Positions 1-24,665 of a stretch of 26,737 nt of DNA are shown here, in pieces. The position numbers and the translations under genes were made by a program. Each line of letters begins with the position of its first letter. Position 1 is the stretch's first letter. The DNA lies in the IMG/VR virus record IMGVR_UViG_3300041955_001975, positions 1 to 26,737 of that record; one strand, written 5' to 3'. The notes below the pieces were generated by a model. It did no database searches. It was not told the DNA's origin and saw only the letters and a program-made list of their open reading frames with translations. The stretch is from a virus (lineage: Duplodnaviria > Heunggongvirae > Uroviricota > Caudoviricetes).

Positions 1-876
1 ATGGACTTCCACACCTACACCACGATGCGTGACTGGACTCGGCGGGTATCGCCGGAGGACCGCTTCGCCCAGGACATCGGCCAGTTCTACAAGCGGGCGA
101 TGGACGATGCGATCAAGGTACGCTCCGCGCAATTTTTCGCCCAACTCATCAACGAACGGGACTGGGAAAAGGCCCGGCGGCCCTACTACAACCTGTGGCC
201 GTCGATCATCCCGATGCTCACCCGGCTGGACCTGGACCTCGATTCCGAACTGATCCGGCTCCCATTGCCGGCCCTCTGCGTCCGTCTTCCCAAAGACTCG
301 GCGAAGAACCCGCTCAAGTTCGAGTGGAAGGGCGACGACGTTTCCGTCCGCTGCATTATGATGGGCGACATGAACCAGGGCGAAGGTATTTCCGTGCTGA
401 TCGACGTGGGCGAATTGGTGGACGAGATCGGGGTGCCGGTCTACACCTACCGCAACTTCCCTCGCAAGCCCGGCCTGACCGTCCAACAATCGGTGGCCAG
501 TCTTGGAAGGAATGTGTTTGCCGACCTGGGCATCCAAGTCCCGGATTCCCTGGTCATGGACTGCGTGCGGCTGTGCTGCTCCCTTTGCCTGCTGGAAAAC
601 GATCCCGAGATCATTTCTCCCGATGTCCTGGCCGATGACCGGGCCAAGTACGAGGCCACCAGCGACCAGAAGTTCGTGGACAAGGCTCACCGGCGTGGCA
701 AGGTCGGCTGGGATGTGGGGAAACAAATCGAAGTCATCCCGCACTACAGAAGGCCGCACATGACTCTCGTTTGGACCGGGCACGGGCGGGTGACGCCTCG
801 GGTGGTGCCCAGGCGGGGAAGTGTTGTCCATCGGGAGGCGGTGGAGAAGTTGCCGAGCGGGTTTGGGGGAGGGTGA
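1..876 (+). CDS. hypothetical protein (291 aa, possibly 5'-truncated by window edge)
   Basis: Long ORF convergent on cas9; C-terminal PHYRRPHMTLVWTGHGR resembles His/Arg motifs seen in uncharacterised phage proteins; no family recognised. Confidence 0.7.
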   Translation: MDFHTYTTMRDWTRRVSPEDRFAQDIGQFYKRAMDDAIKVRSAQFFAQLINERDWEKARRPYYNLWPSIIPMLTRLDLDLDSELIRLPLPALCVRLPKDSAKNPLKFEWKGDDVSVRCIMMGDMNQGEGISVLIDVGELVDEIGVPVYTYRNFPRKPGLTVQQSVASLGRNVFADLGIQVPDSLVMDCVRLCCSLCLLENDPEIISPDVLADDRAKYEATSDQKFVDKAHRRGKVGWDVGKQIEVIPHYRRPHMTLVWTGHGRVTPRVVPRRGSVVHREAVEKLPSGFGGG

Positions 877-926: not shown

Positions 927-3896
927 CTAACGCCAGTCGTGTGAACATCCAGTCGTTCGGGTGGCTCCAACTTCTTCCGCGTCGTTGGCTTCGACTGCCT
1001 CGATGTTCGGCTGCTTTGTTTCTTGTGTTTCTTGGGCGGCTGCAACATTGCCGCTGGCATGGTCGCGGGGAACGCTGTTGCTGAGCTGTTTTGCTTGCTT
1101 GTTGACCACGGCCGCGCACAAGGGGGACCGAAAAACATTCTTGATGTCGCGCAGCGCCGCGGGGGTGAGCGAATTCTTGGATAGGTCCAAGTTCTGCACA
1201 TAGAAGCGGCTGCCGTCGCCTCGCTCGATCACGCATCCTTGCGTCACTCGCTCCACTCGCTCGATGCCTTGGGTCCGGCAATAGTCGCGGAAGGCGGCGA
1301 CCCAGCGAGCAGAGAAGTCGGCCTCCTTCTCCTGTGACCCCAGCGGCCGGCCTGTCACCAGAGGGCTGTCATTCGGCACCTTGACCTTGGGCTCCGTCAC
1401 CTGGAAGATCCGGTTGAGCTTAAAGATCACCAGTTTCTCCTCCAGGACTCCCTTTTCGCACTGGTAGCCCACGTAAAGGCATTGCAGTGACGAGTGTGCG
1501 GCCTGGAATCGTCCTAGCCGTTGTGAATCTGTCTTGCGCGGGACGGTAAAATTGCCGCCAGCTTTGGTCAGCGAGATCCCCATCTGTGGGATCTCGTCGT
1601 TCTTGCCAGCCCGGAAGTCATCCAGCAGTCGCCGGCGATTCAAGTCATTCGGGTGCGTGCCCATCCCCTCGGTGTTGATAGAAGCCCGGAGGTGCTCCAG
1701 AAGTCGGACATCGGCGTGTAGCATGTCTGCCAAGAGATACGTGCGGAGACCGCTGGAAGTGACCTTACGGATGGACTGTTCCAGCATCTTCAGGGCCGGC
1801 TTCTTCTTTCGCTTCTTTTGCTTGCCTGACCCCTCTTCCGGCAGGGCCGTTTCCGCTTCCACTTCGGGCGGGGCCGCCGCCTCCTTGGCCACCAGGGCGA
1901 TCAGATCCTTTAGCTCCTTATGGAACTCCGCGGCGGACGCCTGCTTCTGATCTTTCCCGGTGAGTCTGTTGGTGCCCACGGGGTCCAGTTTGCAGGTGGC
2001 CTGGTTCTTCTTGTTCCAGTTGAAGGAACTCAGCCGCACTCGCACATAACCTCCGGGCAGGAGCGTCTCAAAGCCGGGAATGATCTCCAGGATGGCGTCG
2101 GCAGGCACGGCGGGCCGCTTCTCGAAAAGCAGCGGAGATGCCTTGAGCACCCGTTCCCTCCAGCGGCAGGCGTGTGACTGGCTGACCCGTCGCAGGGGAG
2201 CGCTCCAAGCGCCAAAGGAAGGCACTTTGCAAGCCAGGATAGCGGCGTCAATGGCGTGATTGTAGTCGTCGCCGTGGTCCTTGGCGTACTCGGGCAGCAT
2301 GATGGTGCGGTAAAGGGCTGTAAGACGCCCCGACTGGGCTCGAATCGCACAGGGCTTTCCTGTGCGGGTCTCGATGCACTGGGCGAGGTAGCGGGCCAAC
2401 GGCCGCGGGACCCGTTGGCTGTTGCCGATATGGGTCAGATCGGAGAGGATCATGGCCAGGGCCTGCTCGGCGTCCAAGGCCGAGCCCGCGTGACGCATCC
2501 GATTCAAGAGGCCCTTCTTGGTATCGTGATAGGGGTGCCTGGCGCGGAAGCCGTCGATCTTACGCTTGCCCACGTATTTGCCGTAGGCTTCGTAGGCGTC
2601 GTCGTGGATTGTCATGCCGGCCTCGGCCGCCGTGCGGGAACCCTTCCTTGCGTTGCAGGCGGGACAGGCAGGCACGATGTTCAGGTAGGCGTCGAAGGGG
2701 AATCGACTTTGCGGTAGCAGGTGCTCGACCTCCGTCAGCGGCGACCTCTTTCCGCAGTAGGCGCATCGGCCGTCAAACTCTTTGGTAAGCATTTCCCGCC
2801 GGTCCTGGAAGCCGTAGGCAGGTCCCTGCTGGTAGTGCTTGTAGGCTTCCGCCTCGTTGATCGACTTGTCCTGCTTGCGGTCCGGGTGGTAGCCCCGCAA
2901 CACGTCGAAGGCCACGCGCTCCACGACGATTTCGTCGATTTGGCCGACCAGGGGCAGCACGCGGGCTTCAAGGTAGCGCCACAGGTCGGTGAAGATTTTC
3001 TGCTCGATGCGGCCCACGTCGGCCGGCGAGAAGTCGGTCTTGGTCGGAATCGTCCGCCCCGTGACAACATACTGGATGTAGACATTAGAGTGTTCACAGC
3101 AAAAGCGAGTACGTCCCGCGGATTCCCCCTGAAGTATGTCGCGTATGTTCTTCTCGTAGACGGCCTTGTGCTTCTGAAAGGCCGGCTCCGGGACCAGCGT
3201 GTATAGCGCCTTGAACGGCACCCTCTTGGGCGATGCAAGGGCCCTGTCGATCCACGATTCCAGGGCTTGCCAGAGTTGGGCCGGGGACTCCCGCCGGCGG
3301 ATGATGTCGGTGAGCCAGGCGAAAAGTGCCTGCTGCAACCGTTCGCGCTTGGCATTCTTGGCCCGCCGGACATTGCGGTCACAACCTTCCCAGGCGCATT
3401 TTGACGGCTTGCGGTTCTCGACCCGCATAGGGCGGATTTCGCGGCGAAGGTGCCGGCGGCATACGGCCAGAACCCGCTCCTGATCTTCACTGGCGATGAG
3501 ACGCTTGATCTCCTGGGTCAAGGCGGTTAGAAATTCATCCCGGGAGATAGCAAACGGCATCTCTTTCTGGTCCTGCTCCTGGTCTTCCTTGGCAGGGTGG
3601 CCGAAGCCGCGACCGCTACAATAGCGGAGCAACTCGTCAGCCTGCTTAGACGGCAGACCCAGGCTGAGGAAAGCCGCCCCCAGCCTTTTCAGCCGGCGGC
3701 GTTTCGTCTTCCTCGTTCTGCGCGCCCGTCGAGCCAAGGCGCGGCTGTCCAGGGTCGTTTCGATAGGCTTCCGTTGGACTTCCATCGTGCCGAGGAACCG
3801 CGGGATGTTGCCTTCCGCCGTTTGCTCCACGACGCTGAAACCGATGTACTTTTCGCCGTAGTCGATTCCCAAGCAGAAGGTCATGGTCATCCTCAC
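927..3896 (-). CDS. cas9: compact Cas9 nuclease, type II-D (Cas9d/SMART-I)-like; true start probably ATG 3884 or 3890
   Basis: N-terminal RuvC-I (CLGIDYGEKYIGFSVV), Arg-rich bridge helix (SRALARRARRTRKTKRRRLKRL), REC Cys/His motifs (KCAWEGC ... GRTRFCCEH), RuvC-II (EIVVERVAFD), HNH with CxxC pairs (CAYCGK...EVEHLLPQS...NIVPACPACNARKG), RuvC-III (YNHAIDAAILAC); adjacent anti-repeat and array. Confidence 0.92.
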   Translation of the reverse strand: MRMTMTFCLGIDYGEKYIGFSVVEQTAEGNIPRFLGTMEVQRKPIETTLDSRALARRARRTRKTKRRRLKRLGAAFLSLGLPSKQADELLRYCSGRGFGHPAKEDQEQDQKEMPFAISRDEFLTALTQEIKRLIASEDQERVLAVCRRHLRREIRPMRVENRKPSKCAWEGCDRNVRRAKNAKRERLQQALFAWLTDIIRRRESPAQLWQALESWIDRALASPKRVPFKALYTLVPEPAFQKHKAVYEKNIRDILQGESAGRTRFCCEHSNVYIQYVVTGRTIPTKTDFSPADVGRIEQKIFTDLWRYLEARVLPLVGQIDEIVVERVAFDVLRGYHPDRKQDKSINEAEAYKHYQQGPAYGFQDRREMLTKEFDGRCAYCGKRSPLTEVEHLLPQSRFPFDAYLNIVPACPACNARKGSRTAAEAGMTIHDDAYEAYGKYVGKRKIDGFRARHPYHDTKKGLLNRMRHAGSALDAEQALAMILSDLTHIGNSQRVPRPLARYLAQCIETRTGKPCAIRAQSGRLTALYRTIMLPEYAKDHGDDYNHAIDAAILACKVPSFGAWSAPLRRVSQSHACRWRERVLKASPLLFEKRPAVPADAILEIIPGFETLLPGGYVRVRLSSFNWNKKNQATCKLDPVGTNRLTGKDQKQASAAEFHKELKDLIALVAKEAAAPPEVEAETALPEEGSGKQKKRKKKPALKMLEQSIRKVTSSGLRTYLLADMLHADVRLLEHLRASINTEGMGTHPNDLNRRRLLDDFRAGKNDEIPQMGISLTKAGGNFTVPRKTDSQRLGRFQAAHSSLQCLYVGYQCEKGVLEEKLVIFKLNRIFQVTEPKVKVPNDSPLVTGRPLGSQEKEADFSARWVAAFRDYCRTQGIERVERVTQGCVIERGDGSRFYVQNLDLSKNSLTPAALRDIKNVFRSPLCAAVVNKQAKQLSNSVPRDHASGNVAAAQETQETKQPNIEAVEANDAEEVGATRTTGCSHDWR
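952..1046 (-). CRISPR. degenerate second mini-array (repeat-30 nt spacer-truncated repeat) inside the cas9 3' end
   Basis: 1002-1046 matches the array consensus at 30/36 after removing a 9-nt tandem duplication (tgtttcttg); 952-971 equals repeat positions 1-12 plus 29-36 (gtcgttcgggtg+gctccaac); the gap 972-1001 is exactly 30 nt, the modal spacer length. Confidence 0.72.
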
Positions 3897-3898
3897 TC

Positions 3899-4030
3899 AA
3901 AAGGTCGTTTCAGGACTCACCGAATAAGCCAAGGGAGTTGTGCAGAGCAGGGGTCTGTCCCGACCACTGGTGCGTCCCCGGGCAACGGCTCTTTGTAGTC
4001 AACCGGAAACAAAGCATTCGTTCGTTGTAC
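3899..4030 (-). ncRNA. putative tracrRNA (ends approximate)
   Basis: Anti-repeat at 3992-4020 (+ strand tttgtagtcaaccggaaacaaagcattcg) is complementary to the crRNA repeat over about 23 Watson-Crick pairs with one bulge; followed by a nexus-like CUACAAAGAGCCGU, a GGCUUA-UUCGG-UGAGUC hairpin (3914-3930) and a U4 tract (3899-3902). Confidence 0.8.
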
Positions 4031-4054
4031 GGGTCATGTGCCCCTGCCCATACT

Positions 4055-4082
4055 AAGAGTTGCAAAATCTGGAAAAGTGGTT
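4055..4082 (-). promoter_or_regulatory. bipartite conserved motif copy 1 (AACCACTTTT-CCAGA-TTTTGCAACTCTT), upstream of tracrRNA/cas9
   Basis: Same motif, spacing and strand at 7889, 12569 and 24465. Confidence 0.7.
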
Positions 4083-4162
4083 TTGGCGGAGGGAGATTTT
4101 CTGGGAGGTTCCGCCGCTAGCTCGATGCAAGGACTCATACGGCAGCCTGTTGCGGCGGACAG

Positions 4163-4451
4163 ATTGTTCGGGTGCTTTGTTCCCCGGGCGGCTACAACAA
4201 GCATTTGTTTCCGGCCGCAAACTGGAATACTGTTCGGGTGCTTTGTTTCCCGGGCGGCTACAACTCTACGCGATCAAGCAGAAATTGTTCGGCTGCTTTG
4301 TTTTCCGAGCGGCTACAACTGCTGGATCGTTCGGATCTGTGACTGGTGCGTTGTTCGGGTGCTTTGTTTCCCAGGCGGCTACAACAAAGTGACGAGAGGA
4401 ACAGGCAAGAGTAGTATTGTTCGGGTGCTTTGTCTCCCGGGCGACTGTAAC
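4163..4451 (-). CRISPR. type II CRISPR mini-array, 5 x 36-nt repeats (consensus GTTGTAGCCGCCCGGGAAACAAAGCACCCGAACAAT), spacers 30/19/30/30 nt
   Basis: Repeats at 4163-4198, 4229-4264, 4284-4319, 4350-4385 and 4416-4451; GTTGTAG...AAT termini resemble type II-C repeats; orientation inferred from the GTTGTAG 5' end and tracr complementarity. Confidence 0.95.
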
Positions 4452-4453
4452 AC

Positions 4454-4481
4454 AACTTAGAAACTGCTAGGACTGACGCAA
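4454..4481 (-). promoter_or_regulatory. possible sigma70-like promoter for the array (TTGCGT-16 nt-TAAGTT)
   Basis: Hexamers read on the minus strand directly upstream of the most degenerate repeat; weak consensus match. Confidence 0.3.
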
Positions 4482-4675
4482 TAGACGGCGTACTCGTGGC
4501 CGTATCAGTCGGAACAACAGGTACGACTGTCAGAAAATACTCGCCATAATTCAGACAGATTCCGGTGGGTTCCGGCAGGATTCATAGTTAGCTATCACGG
4601 TTTGTGATCCCTTGGTGTTTGGCTAGAATGTTGTGGGGTTCAACCCGCAGGCGACCATTTTCTCGATCCCCTGCA

Positions 4676-4954
4676 TCAAGGGCGAAGGTAGCGATCCACC
4701 TTGCGGTAAGCAGGCTGTGCTTCAGAATCCTCTTGCATCGGCCCTTGCGCGCCAACCTGCCGGAGCCCGGCCACCGCCCTCTTGTGCCCGTTGACCAGGC
4801 TCTCGTAGGCTTGATCCCGTTGTCGCTCACTGGCGTACCAGCCATTGGAGAACCATTGCTGGAACCAGTTGCCCCAGTATTCGATGCCCCATTTCTTCTT
4901 CCGCGAGGGCATGGCCTTCTTCTTGTGGCGGGGAATCTCGGGGTCGCGGAACAT
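4676..4954 (-). CDS. hypothetical protein (92 aa, Trp-rich)
   Basis: ATG 4954 preceded by RBS-like GAGAGGGAG; MFRDPEIPRH...WGIEYWGNWFQQWFSNGW. Confidence 0.6.
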   Translation of the reverse strand: MFRDPEIPRHKKKAMPSRKKKWGIEYWGNWFQQWFSNGWYASERQRDQAYESLVNGHKRAVAGLRQVGAQGPMQEDSEAQPAYRKVDRYLRP

Positions 4955-5024
4955 GGCTACTCCCTCTCGACGAAGCCGTCCTCTTCGGCCCAGGCTTCCA
5001 GGTGAGGTCGCCGGGTCTCGTCGG

Positions 5025-6470: not shown

Positions 6471-7832
6471 TTAGTTGGGACATTTAGCAGCCCGCGGCTC
6501 GGCCGGCAGAACGCCGGTCGCCCGCAGCAGCAAGAGGTTCATCAAGGTCTCGGTCAGGCTCGCGCCCTTGCCGTCCTTGCCATCGCCGCCGACGATCACG
6601 ACGCCCGGCACCTTGATCCCCGCCAGGGCCTCGGCGACCTTGGCGTCCCGGTCGGCCTTGATCGTGGCGAGAATCCGGTCCTTCTCCGCTAGGCCGCCGC
6701 CCAGTTCGATCTCTTTCTGCTTGGCCTCGGCAGCCGATATGGTCGCCTTCTTGTCGATCTCGGCCGTGTCGGCCTTGATCTGGGCGATCTTCTTGAGGGT
6801 CTCGGCCTCGGCCTGGGCCTTGGAGGCGACTTCGACCTTCTGCTCGGCGGCGGTCACGGCCTGGGTCTTGGTAATCACGGCGACTTCGGCCGCCTGGGTG
6901 GCCTGGATCAGGGCCCGCTCTTTCTTCTGGTTCTCCTCGGCCTTGATTTCGGCGACCTGCCGGAGTCCCTTTTCCGTGACCATGAGCCGCTGTTGGTACT
7001 CTTCCTGCCGCTGGGCCTTGGCTTGCTCGGCCTTCAGGTAGGATTCCTTCTTGGCCGCAAACTGGGCCAAGGTCTGCTCGTCGTACTGGGTCTCGGTGAC
7101 GCTGAATTGAAGGATACCGATCCGGTAGCGGTCCAGAGGAGACGCTTGCACGATGACCGGCTTCCCGTTGTCGCCCAGGACAACCTCCGTCGCCATGACG
7201 TGGGCCTTCTTCTCCGTGGTGATAGGCTTGCCGTCCGGGCCGGGCTGCGGAGTGCTCTCGGAAACGTCTTTCAATTCGACTTCGGTACGCCGCATCTCGA
7301 AGAGGCCCTTGGCAAGCTGCTCCTCGACGACCTGGTTGAACTCGGCCTTGCGGCTGGCCTGGTTCTCGCTGGCGGACATCATCGGGCCCGTGCTCTTGAT
7401 GCAGTTCGTAAGGTGCGAGCGCACGGCGTCCAGGATGTTGGCCGGGTTGGCGTTGAAGTCCTGGTGCATGAGCATACGGTGCTCGTTGTCGGTCGGCAGT
7501 TGGATCTTGACGAAGCTGCTGATGTGGGCCGTGCCGCCGTCGTTGAACGTGACCCGGATCGAGTCGTCCTGCGGGCCGCCCTCTTTTGTGCTCGCCGAGT
7601 AGTAGGCTTGCATGGCACGCGGGTAGGTCCAGATCGTGGCGAACCCCTTGAAGTAGTAGCCCGAGGAGTCGATGATGGAGACCTTGCCGGTGATCGACTG
7701 GCAGACCTGCCAGTTCTGGGAGTCGTTGTGGCCGATCATGCCGGACCAGAGGATGCCGGTGACGATCAGGACGGCCATGACGGCGAGAAGGGCACAGGTG
7801 ATTTTCACCTTTGCGGGAAGAGACAAGGACAT
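6471..7832 (-). CDS. SPFH/band 7 domain membrane protein (453 aa)
   Basis: N-terminal TM helix, SPFH-like core (SIRVTFNDGGTAHISSFVKIQLP...), long Ala/Glu/Lys coiled coil, C-terminal IKVPGVVIVGG typical of this family. Confidence 0.85.
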   Translation of the reverse strand: MSLSLPAKVKITCALLAVMAVLIVTGILWSGMIGHNDSQNWQVCQSITGKVSIIDSSGYYFKGFATIWTYPRAMQAYYSASTKEGGPQDDSIRVTFNDGGTAHISSFVKIQLPTDNEHRMLMHQDFNANPANILDAVRSHLTNCIKSTGPMMSASENQASRKAEFNQVVEEQLAKGLFEMRRTEVELKDVSESTPQPGPDGKPITTEKKAHVMATEVVLGDNGKPVIVQASPLDRYRIGILQFSVTETQYDEQTLAQFAAKKESYLKAEQAKAQRQEEYQQRLMVTEKGLRQVAEIKAEENQKKERALIQATQAAEVAVITKTQAVTAAEQKVEVASKAQAEAETLKKIAQIKADTAEIDKKATISAAEAKQKEIELGGGLAEKDRILATIKADRDAKVAEALAGIKVPGVVIVGGDGKDGKGASLTETLMNLLLLRATGVLPAEPRAAKCPN

Positions 7833-7888
7833 TGGTGTAGCTCCAGAAGGAAACTTGGAATAGGTGCGTCAAGCACCAGGCTCACATA

Positions 7889-7916
7889 AAGAGTTGCGAA
7901 AACTCTCAAACTGGTT
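7889..7916 (-). promoter_or_regulatory. bipartite conserved motif copy 2, upstream of SPFH gene
   Basis: AACCAGTTTG-AGAGT-TTTCGCAACTCTT, 56 nt before the SPFH start. Confidence 0.65.
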
Positions 7917-8212
7917 TTAGCGTTCCTCGCTTTTCTTACGGGCGACGCGCTGCTTGCGCGGTTTGGTGATTTCCGACCGGAGGGCTTCTGCGGTCTGGGC
8001 GATCTCCACCGCTTGCAGATCGGCGGCGCTGGCGGCCTGCCGGGCGTCGATTTGGTCGGCGCGAAGACGAGCGACGACCTCCTGGCTGCTGGCGGCGGTT
8101 CGACGATTTCGCTCACGAATCGGGTGAACCACCGGCTGCGTATCAGAAGCTTGTAGACGAGAAGCCCCAAGAAGACTACGACGAGCGTTGCCAGAACTTC
8201 GATGGTTGCCAT
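7917..8212 (-). pseudogene. probable frameshifted small membrane protein (TM + helical tail)
   Basis: TM N-terminus (MATIEVLATLVVVFLGLLVYKLL) in one frame; helical C-terminus (ASSQEVVARLRADQ...KKSEER) in another; junction near 8095-8100. Confidence 0.5.
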
Positions 8213-12511: not shown

Positions 12512-12568
12512 GGTTGCGCTCCCTTGGGGTTAAGTTGCGGGGCAGCCTAGTCCGCGCTCCGCCATACC

Positions 12569-12596
12569 AAGAGTTGCAAAATCTCGAAAACTGGTT
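12569..12596 (-). promoter_or_regulatory. bipartite conserved motif copy 3
   Basis: AACCAGTTTT-CGAGA-TTTTGCAACTCTT, intergenic, 57 nt upstream of the 12511 start. Confidence 0.7.
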
Positions 12597-12602
12597 TTCC
12601 GA

Positions 12603-23973: not shown

Positions 23974-24665
23974 GGGAGCAATTCCTGGAACTTGGACGAG
24001 CCGATGCGGGTGCAACCCATGTCCAGGTAACGGACTGCATCAGCGTAAGTGTTGATCCCGCCGCTGGCCTTGACTCCGCACCAATAATCGCCCCTTACGG
24101 CGTCAAGCATGATCCGCACCACGTCTGGGGTTGCTCCGTGCGGGGCGACGCCGGTCGAGGTCTTGATGTAATCCACGCCGCAATCAGCGCACAGGCGGGA
24201 GGCGTCCCTTATCTGGGACGGCGTGTAATAGCAAGTCTCCAGGATGGCTTTGACGATCGCCCCTCGCGGGCGGGCCTCGGCGACAATCTGGGTCAGCTCG
24301 GTCCTTATTGGGCCCGGATCGCCATCCAGGAGCCGGCCGTAGTTGACCACTACGTCGATCTCCTTCGCCCCGGAACCCATTGCCTCCACGGCCTCCACCG
24401 TCTTGGTAAACGGAGTGGTGTTGCCGTGCGGGAAACCGACAACAGCACACACTCGGTCCGTATAAAGAGTTGCAAAACAGACAAAACTGGTTGGGACGCA
24501 GACGGATTTTATTCCGTAGCGGTTCACCATCTCGCAGGCTGCGCGCACCTCGGCCGCCGTTGCGGTGGGCTTCAACACTGCCAGGTCCAGGGAGTCGGCA
24601 ATGCGCTTTACAGCGGTTGCGCGGTCGTCGGGTGTGGCTTCAGGCTCGATCTGATTGTTGTTCAT
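23970..24665 (-). CDS. deoC: deoxyribose-phosphate aldolase
   Basis: VVGFPHG, EIDVV, VKAILET, Schiff-base DYIKTSTG, GVKASGGI, RIGSS. Confidence 0.95.
   Translation of the reverse strand: MNNNQIEPEATPDDRATAVKRIADSLDLAVLKPTATAAEVRAACEMVNRYGIKSVCVPTSFVCFATLYTDRVCAVVGFPHGNTTPFTKTVEAVEAMGSGAKEIDVVVNYGRLLDGDPGPIRTELTQIVAEARPRGAIVKAILETCYYTPSQIRDASRLCADCGVDYIKTSTGVAPHGATPDVVRIMLDAVRGDYWCGVKASGGINTYADAVRYLDMGCTRIGSSKFQELLP
24465..24492 (-). promoter_or_regulatory. bipartite conserved motif copy 4 (inside deoC)
   Basis: AACCAGTTTT-GTCTG-TTTTGCAACTCTT, perfect match to both half-sites. Confidence 0.5.

Follow-up and report, generated by a model that had tools for sequence, protein, structure and literature searches.

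A repeat-spacer-repeat unit in the last codons of a provirus-borne cas9-like gene, probably a relic of a downstream CRISPR array

The DNA analyzed here (referred to as the window) is a stretch of 26,737 nucleotides (nt) that corresponds to the initial 26.7 kb of a provirus record of 113,838 bases, IMG/VR record IMGVR_UViG_3300041955_001975. On its minus strand, to which the relic coordinates below refer, it carries in this order a clustered regularly interspaced short palindromic repeat (CRISPR) array, the anti-repeat of a trans-activating CRISPR RNA (tracrRNA) and a 989-amino-acid (aa) cas9-like open reading frame (ORF) (Table 1). The last ∼30 codons of this ORF consist of two degenerate CRISPR repeats, which we call R1' and R2', and a spacer-like stretch between them. 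This raises the question of how a repeat-spacer-repeat unit came to lie within the coding sequence of an effector, and whether it still supplies a guide RNA. As set out below, the unit is probably the decayed remnant of a second array that once lay downstream of cas9 and that cas9 now reads through.

The tail of the cas9-like ORF and the CRISPR repeat

The conserved fold of the window's Cas9 ends with an RSPL motif (residues 923 to 926, nt 1130 to 1119), and most homologues terminate 3 to 9 residues beyond it. The window protein continues for 63 residues past the motif (residues 927 to 989), and these form a lineage-specific tail. A first-pass annotation, made from the letters of the window, had described R1' with a 9-nt duplication, a spacer of exactly 30 nt and R2' within the end of cas9, and had given the peptide with which the ORF reads through all three; the sequence is as described on both points. 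In a local alignment with the repeat consensus, the tail reached a score of 36, compared with 23 for the best match elsewhere in the window on either strand and 28 for the anti-repeat, and in relatives that lack the duplication the R1' site scores between 45 and 48. The motif GTTGNAGCCNCCC occurs four times on the two strands of the 113,838-base provirus (0.13 occurrences expected), twice in the true array (sites 4264 and 4198) and twice in the tail (1046 and 971), all of them on the minus strand. The distance from one tail site to the other is 75 nt, and subtraction of the 9-nt duplication leaves 66 nt, the period of the array. Both properties expected of an array remnant, namely, an origin from the repeat of its own locus beyond chance and the periodicity of the parent array, are thus present, showing that the tail sequence derives from CRISPR repeats.

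Chance resemblance in G+C-rich coding sequence, or an artefact of assembly, would find an argument in the short length of R2' only. Against this stand scores of 36 to 48 over a background maximum of 23, the 4 motif copies in exact array phase and the presence of the unit in four further contigs from other assemblies. We rejected this explanation, which has next to no probability, on the basis of the alignment background, the motif count and an independent contig.

In R2', the first 13 nt agree exactly with a repeat variant in the nearest non-identical relative of the locus (L006, described below), and the A at its position 10 is the usual state among the repeats of the family. G5 and A10 of R2' are both found in the repeats of L006 and the family and are absent from all 19 upstream repeats of the window and its close relatives. 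The first-pass annotation had taken R2' for a repeat that lost 16 nt from its interior, which is one possible reading; a terminal repeat with a degenerate 3' half could also account for the sequence. A likeness of the relic spacer to spacer 2 of the array (16/31) was set aside as post hoc and marginal.

Relatives of the locus and array position in the family

We compared the window with three close lineages, two of them represented by ENA contigs (L005 and L032) and one by a contig of a Pirellulales metagenome-assembled genome (MAG) (L008, contig CAWJKP010000009). All three share 93.5 to 95% DNA identity with the window from the array through the end of cas9. R1', the 30-nt stretch and R2' are present in each of them, with a gap of exactly 9 nt at the position of the window's duplication, so that the repeats and the tail are kept in homologous loci without this duplication. 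The absence of the duplication from the three lineages points to a recent in-frame slippage event in the lineage of the window. The duplication is also found in L035, an independent Joint Genome Institute (JGI) contig that is identical to the window here and thereby argues against an assembly error, and in the cluster members P0056 to P0058 and P0062. No further relatives were retrieved from viral contigs by protein, alignment or DNA pattern, nor by an alignment scan of JGI metagenomes, where the DNA pattern gave one contig, identical to the window. The collections searched contained no relative with 60 to 90% protein identity. One additional locus, L036, holds a truncated gene and is uninformative for the comparison.

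The ORF ends at three different places in the four lineages. L005 has a TGA stop inside R2' in place of the CGA of the other lineages; the stop of the window and L032 comes ten codons further on, and that of L008 another two codons after it. Past position 928, unrelated inserts of ∼790 nt in L005 and ∼570 nt in L032 precede a convergent gene that is shared with the window (window 1 to 876, plus strand), and the insert of L008 matches that of L005 over the part compared. The window's 928/929 boundary, before this gene, resembles a hot spot for small cargo insertions. Compared with the window, the cas9 region of L008 (3001 to 5965) has three indels of one base each and loses its reading frame at codon 68, which could reflect either a prophage pseudogene or long-read assembly errors.

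In order to place the unit in the wider family, we scanned 20 related loci for the position of their arrays. Arrays lie upstream of the gene in Planctomycete genomes and downstream of it in Desulfobacterota-type, Nitrospirota and NC10 genomes, and the downstream layout is the commoner one in the family. The nearest non-identical relative (P0003/L006, 47% identity) combines a two-repeat mini-array, a tracrRNA and cas9 with a real array, of period 66, that follows the gene. In L006, the RSPL motif ends at 6978, the stop codon occupies 7036 to 7038 and the first full downstream repeat begins at 7050, that is, 71 nt after the motif; in the window, R1' begins after 72 nt. An intact array at the homologous position is therefore found in one relative, L006 being the single such case. 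Moreover, the last cas9 codons of L006 (L006:7023-7038) hold a perfect 10-nt copy of the 5' end of the repeat, 27 nt before the first full downstream repeat, suggesting that the junction between gene and array is fluid in this clade.

In a maximum-likelihood tree of Cas9, which is rooted at the midpoint only, the window and L006 are sisters with 100/100 support. The pair stands beside the Planctomycete clade with upstream arrays, and the clades with downstream arrays lie outside. The pair itself has arrays on both sides of the gene, or one array plus a relic. On this tree, downstream arrays appear to be ancestral in the family. Among the other family loci, no relic was detected opposite the array at a score of at least 26. 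Repeat-like stretches at and after the stop of one cas9 fragment with 49% identity (L033:1718-1755 and L033:2203-2219) scored 24 over a background of ∼20; this is not significant, and they may be a relic.

Origin, constraint and pairing of the unit

Taken together, the position of the L006 array at the same distance past the conserved end of Cas9, the commoner and apparently ancestral downstream layout of the family and the near-neutral variation, variable stop codons and indel of the relic support the view that the unit descends from an array downstream of cas9. Among the four lineages, 7 of the 86 relic positions are variable (8.1%), which compares with 6.4% in the gene body, 10.3% at four-fold sites and ∼4% at first and second codon positions. 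Within the tail, the variable fractions of codon positions 1, 2 and 3 are 8.2%, 4.9% and 8.2%, with no third-position excess, and the ratio of nonsynonymous to synonymous substitution rates (dN/dS) between the window and L005 is 0.22 for the body and 0.42 to 0.47 for the tail. These values, from small counts, fit near-neutral drift, with no sign of selection on RNA or protein. The four upstream arrays behave differently, since all of their 15 spacers are unique (15/15) while the relic spacer is common to the four lineages apart from 1 to 2 substitutions; in other words, there is turnover in the upstream array and none in the relic. None of the 15 upstream spacers matches the provirus.

Two observations on spacer acquisition stand apart from the origin of the relic. 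No spacer is common to the four arrays (window 4163-4451; L005:1171-1403; L008:2498-2735; L032:2013-2370) in spite of the 93.5 to 95% identity of the lineages, yet the provirus encodes no Cas1. The related 9.3-Mb host MAG carries four Cas1-like genes elsewhere, and the repeat occurs nowhere else in this MAG.

The history that we propose begins with a downstream array as the ancestral state. The Planctomycete branch would have gained an upstream array at its base, so that an ancestor of this Planctomycete phage would have carried a second CRISPR array directly downstream of cas9. The downstream array would then have been lost, leaving the relic in the lineage of the window. The stop codon between gene and array presumably disappeared through a small change and not through a large deletion, and the position of this former stop can no longer be seen. 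The ORF would thereafter have run on through the remnant, adding to the Cas9d-like protein ∼60 residues that are probably disordered and tolerated. Thus, the proposal of the first-pass annotation that the ORF took in what was left of an older array downstream of it gains support from the array position of L006, the layout of the family and the near-neutral variation, with the loss of the stop codon as its conjectural part. The decay probably began a few times earlier than the common ancestor of the four lineages, judging from the 5 of 35 positions at which R1' differs from the consensus and a pairwise synonymous divergence of ∼0.08. It also probably began long after the split from L006, given that the L006 repeat has a different 3' half.

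Several points weigh against this history. The root on which the ancestral state of the arrays depends is a midpoint root. The counts of variable sites are small, and the relic is statistically inseparable from either the gene body or neutral sites (Fisher p = 0.5 to 0.7). All lineages keep an open frame across the remnant, and the one indel preserves it, which could hint at selection on the tail; from base composition, we estimate that ∼30% of random frames of the same length and G+C content would remain open. Finally, R1' retains an 11-bp in-register anti-repeat core in three of the four lineages (window, L008 and L032), so that a degree of pairing with the tracrRNA is physically feasible.

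The same evidence bears on the origin of the unit as an ectopic copy, in which a repeat-spacer-repeat segment of the upstream array would have been recombined to the 3' end of cas9. R1' is indeed similar to the present upstream repeat from end to end (30/35), and the different inserts of the relatives indicate that the 3' boundary of cas9 is prone to recombination. However, a copy of this kind would not be expected to lie within 1 nt of the position of the first downstream repeat of L006, nor to carry the G5 and A10 that R2' shares with the repeats of L006 and the family and with no upstream repeat, and the relic spacer matches no upstream spacer. We therefore consider an ectopic copy unlikely.

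A different alternative, in line with the regulatory guide that the first-pass annotation had suggested for the 3' end of the cas9 mRNA, is that the unit still acts as RNA. R1' in the message would pair with the tracrRNA, and ribonuclease III together with Cas9 would either release a CRISPR RNA-like guide, with the 30 nt upstream of R1' (1076 to 1047) as its guide part, or cleave and destabilize the mRNA, coupling cas9 expression to the level of the tracrRNA. R1' is on the cas9 transcript by construction, type II loci have known regulatory repeat-like RNAs, such as the small CRISPR/Cas-associated RNA (scaRNA) and tracr-L, and the in-register core of R1' is accompanied by flanking pairs, giving duplexes with the anti-repeat of −24.6 to −25.9 kcal/mol in the window, L008 and L032 (true repeats, −28 to −29.5 kcal/mol). 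Such energies place R1' within the top ∼1 to 5% of ordinary 36-nt stretches taken from this ORF and are not exceptional, and in L005 a G-to-A change breaks the pairing core and leaves a duplex of −19.2 kcal/mol. Pairing with the tracrRNA, as would be expected of an RNA like scaRNA or tracr-L, is consequently not conserved among the relatives. No compensatory changes accompany the near-neutral variation.

The spacer of a type II system functions together with the repeat on its downstream side. R2' has lost the 12-nt anti-repeat core and pairs at best out of register (−15.5 kcal/mol), leaving the conserved 30-nt spacer with no usable downstream repeat and the unit without the pairing downstream repeat of a functional CRISPR RNA. 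Thus, when the variant repeats are set against the tracrRNA, the core of R1' pairs in three lineages and is broken in L005, and R2' is without it. The search for targets was equally negative. Against their own provirus, the relic spacer and the 30-nt stretch ahead of R1' gave chance-level matches of 10 to 14 nt, none of them in a promoter (a 10-nt seed match at 4905 to 4896 falls within a small ORF). Neither sequence has a target in an exact scan of IMG/VR or in the INPHARED phages, and in the related 9.3-Mb Pirellulales MAG the queries matched the locus itself only, at up to 3 mismatches. Furthermore, the relic region has no match in Rfam and a local RNA fold that is not unusual (z = 0.34), and no sigma-70-type promoter or intrinsic terminator was found between 700 and 1400. 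These results speak against a regulatory guide, and coupled release or destabilization of the message appears quite unlikely. It is very unlikely, too, that a fossil R1' is still bound by the tracrRNA, with the 3' end of the message cut or sequestered according to tracrRNA and Cas9 levels or with a self-derived guide made from 1076 to 1047; if true, such binding would constitute a feedback loop from an absorbed array within the effector's own coding sequence. The decayed remnant of a downstream array, in contrast, would probably have no RNA function of its own, and guides would be supplied by the array upstream of the tracrRNA.

The effector locus among known systems

The features of the locus are collected in Table 1. 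The top PDB matches of the window protein are the Cas9d structures 8zq9, 9auf and 8w2z (E of ∼1e-23, residues 7 to 432), a similarity that covers the N-terminal ∼430 residues alone. The order RuvC-bridge helix-REC-HNH and the closest similarity to Cas9d, as expected of a type II-D effector, are both found, so that the effector can be described as Cas9d-like on the basis of its N-terminal 430 aligned residues. The relatives found point to Planctomycete (Pirellulales) hosts for this phage. We also observed a 37-nt motif in four copies (window 4048-4084, 7882-7918, 12562-12598 and 24458-24494), one of which lies immediately before the tracrRNA and cas9. A stretch of ∼560 nt (window 4452-5016) that separates the array from the conserved upstream gene is found only in the lineage of the window; in L005, L008 and L032, the array begins a few bases past the stop codon of the upstream gene.

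TABLE 1 Features of the cas9-like locus and of the repeat-derived tail (window coordinates)
Feature	Position	Strand	Remarks
Upstream CRISPR array	4163..4451	-	Five non-identical 36-nt repeats; period 66; spacers of 30, 30, 19 and 30 nt
tracrRNA anti-repeat	3993..4028 (approximate)	-	Between array and cas9; consensus alignment score 28, complementary strand
cas9-like ORF (989 aa, P0001), RuvC/HNH	927..3896	-	Pfam RRXRR and HNH
Tail segment, RSPL to first remnant, 72 nt	1047..1118	-	Length matches the 71 nt in L006
R1', degenerate repeat, 45 nt	1002..1046	-	30/35 identical to array consensus without the duplication; present in L005, L008 and L032
Tandem in-frame 9-nt duplication within R1'	1017..1034	-	CAAGAAACA at 1034-1026 and 1025-1017; lineage of the window only
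Spacer-like stretch, exactly 30 nt	972..1001	-	In four lineages, with 1-2 substitutions
R2', partial repeat, 20 nt	952..971	-	Exact array phase; without the GGGAAACAAAGC core that pairs with the anti-repeat
Final codons and TAG stop	927..951	-	Similarity to relatives stops at 928

Type II-D loci with Cas9d (PMC9755519, PMC11706934, PMC11903963) resemble the window's locus in their compact RuvC/HNH effector, whose similarity covers the N-terminal half of the window protein, and in having an array and a tracrRNA adjacent to the gene and no adaptation genes in the element. They differ in that the window protein is ∼240 aa longer than the solved 747-aa Cas9d and is borne by a provirus, and in that, within the clade of the window, arrays occur before the gene, after it or in both places. 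Among repeat-like RNAs, Francisella scaRNA and Streptococcus tracr-L are encoded between genes, are transcribed as separate RNAs and carry a short guide that matches a promoter next to a protospacer-adjacent motif. The relic shares with them a degenerate repeat beside cas9 for which pairing with the tracrRNA is conceivable, but it is coding sequence, no target was found for it and its pairing core is not conserved. CreA and CreR are described as intergenic mini-arrays of type I and V-A systems with partial complementarity to cas or toxin promoters. The relic is like these in being a two-repeat degenerate mini-array associated with cas genes; they differ in belonging to another CRISPR type and in an intergenic place and a promoter complementarity that are not seen for the relic.

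Decaying or orphan CRISPR arrays and degenerate terminal repeats are known among CRISPR loci. The relic is like such arrays in its substitutions and indels, its more degenerate distal repeat, its frozen and targetless spacer and its near-neutral variation, and it differs from them in lying inside the reading frame of the effector, where it is translated as the C terminus of Cas9. In every respect tested, it resembles an ordinary decaying array, and its unusual trait is its place. A large systematic survey of repeat-like elements retained only matches that do not overlap ORFs, so that cases like this one would be unrecorded there.

Repeat-like sequences thus do exist inside cas ORFs, and a match of this kind should be compared with relatives before it is interpreted as a regulatory guide. 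To those who work with compact Cas9d-like nucleases, the tail suggests that the last ∼60 residues of the Cas9d-like protein may be dispensable. For the family itself, the locus offers a dated and documented case of CRISPR locus rearrangement, in which an effector gene with two arrays would have lost one of them and the leftover would have become a C-terminal extension of the protein.

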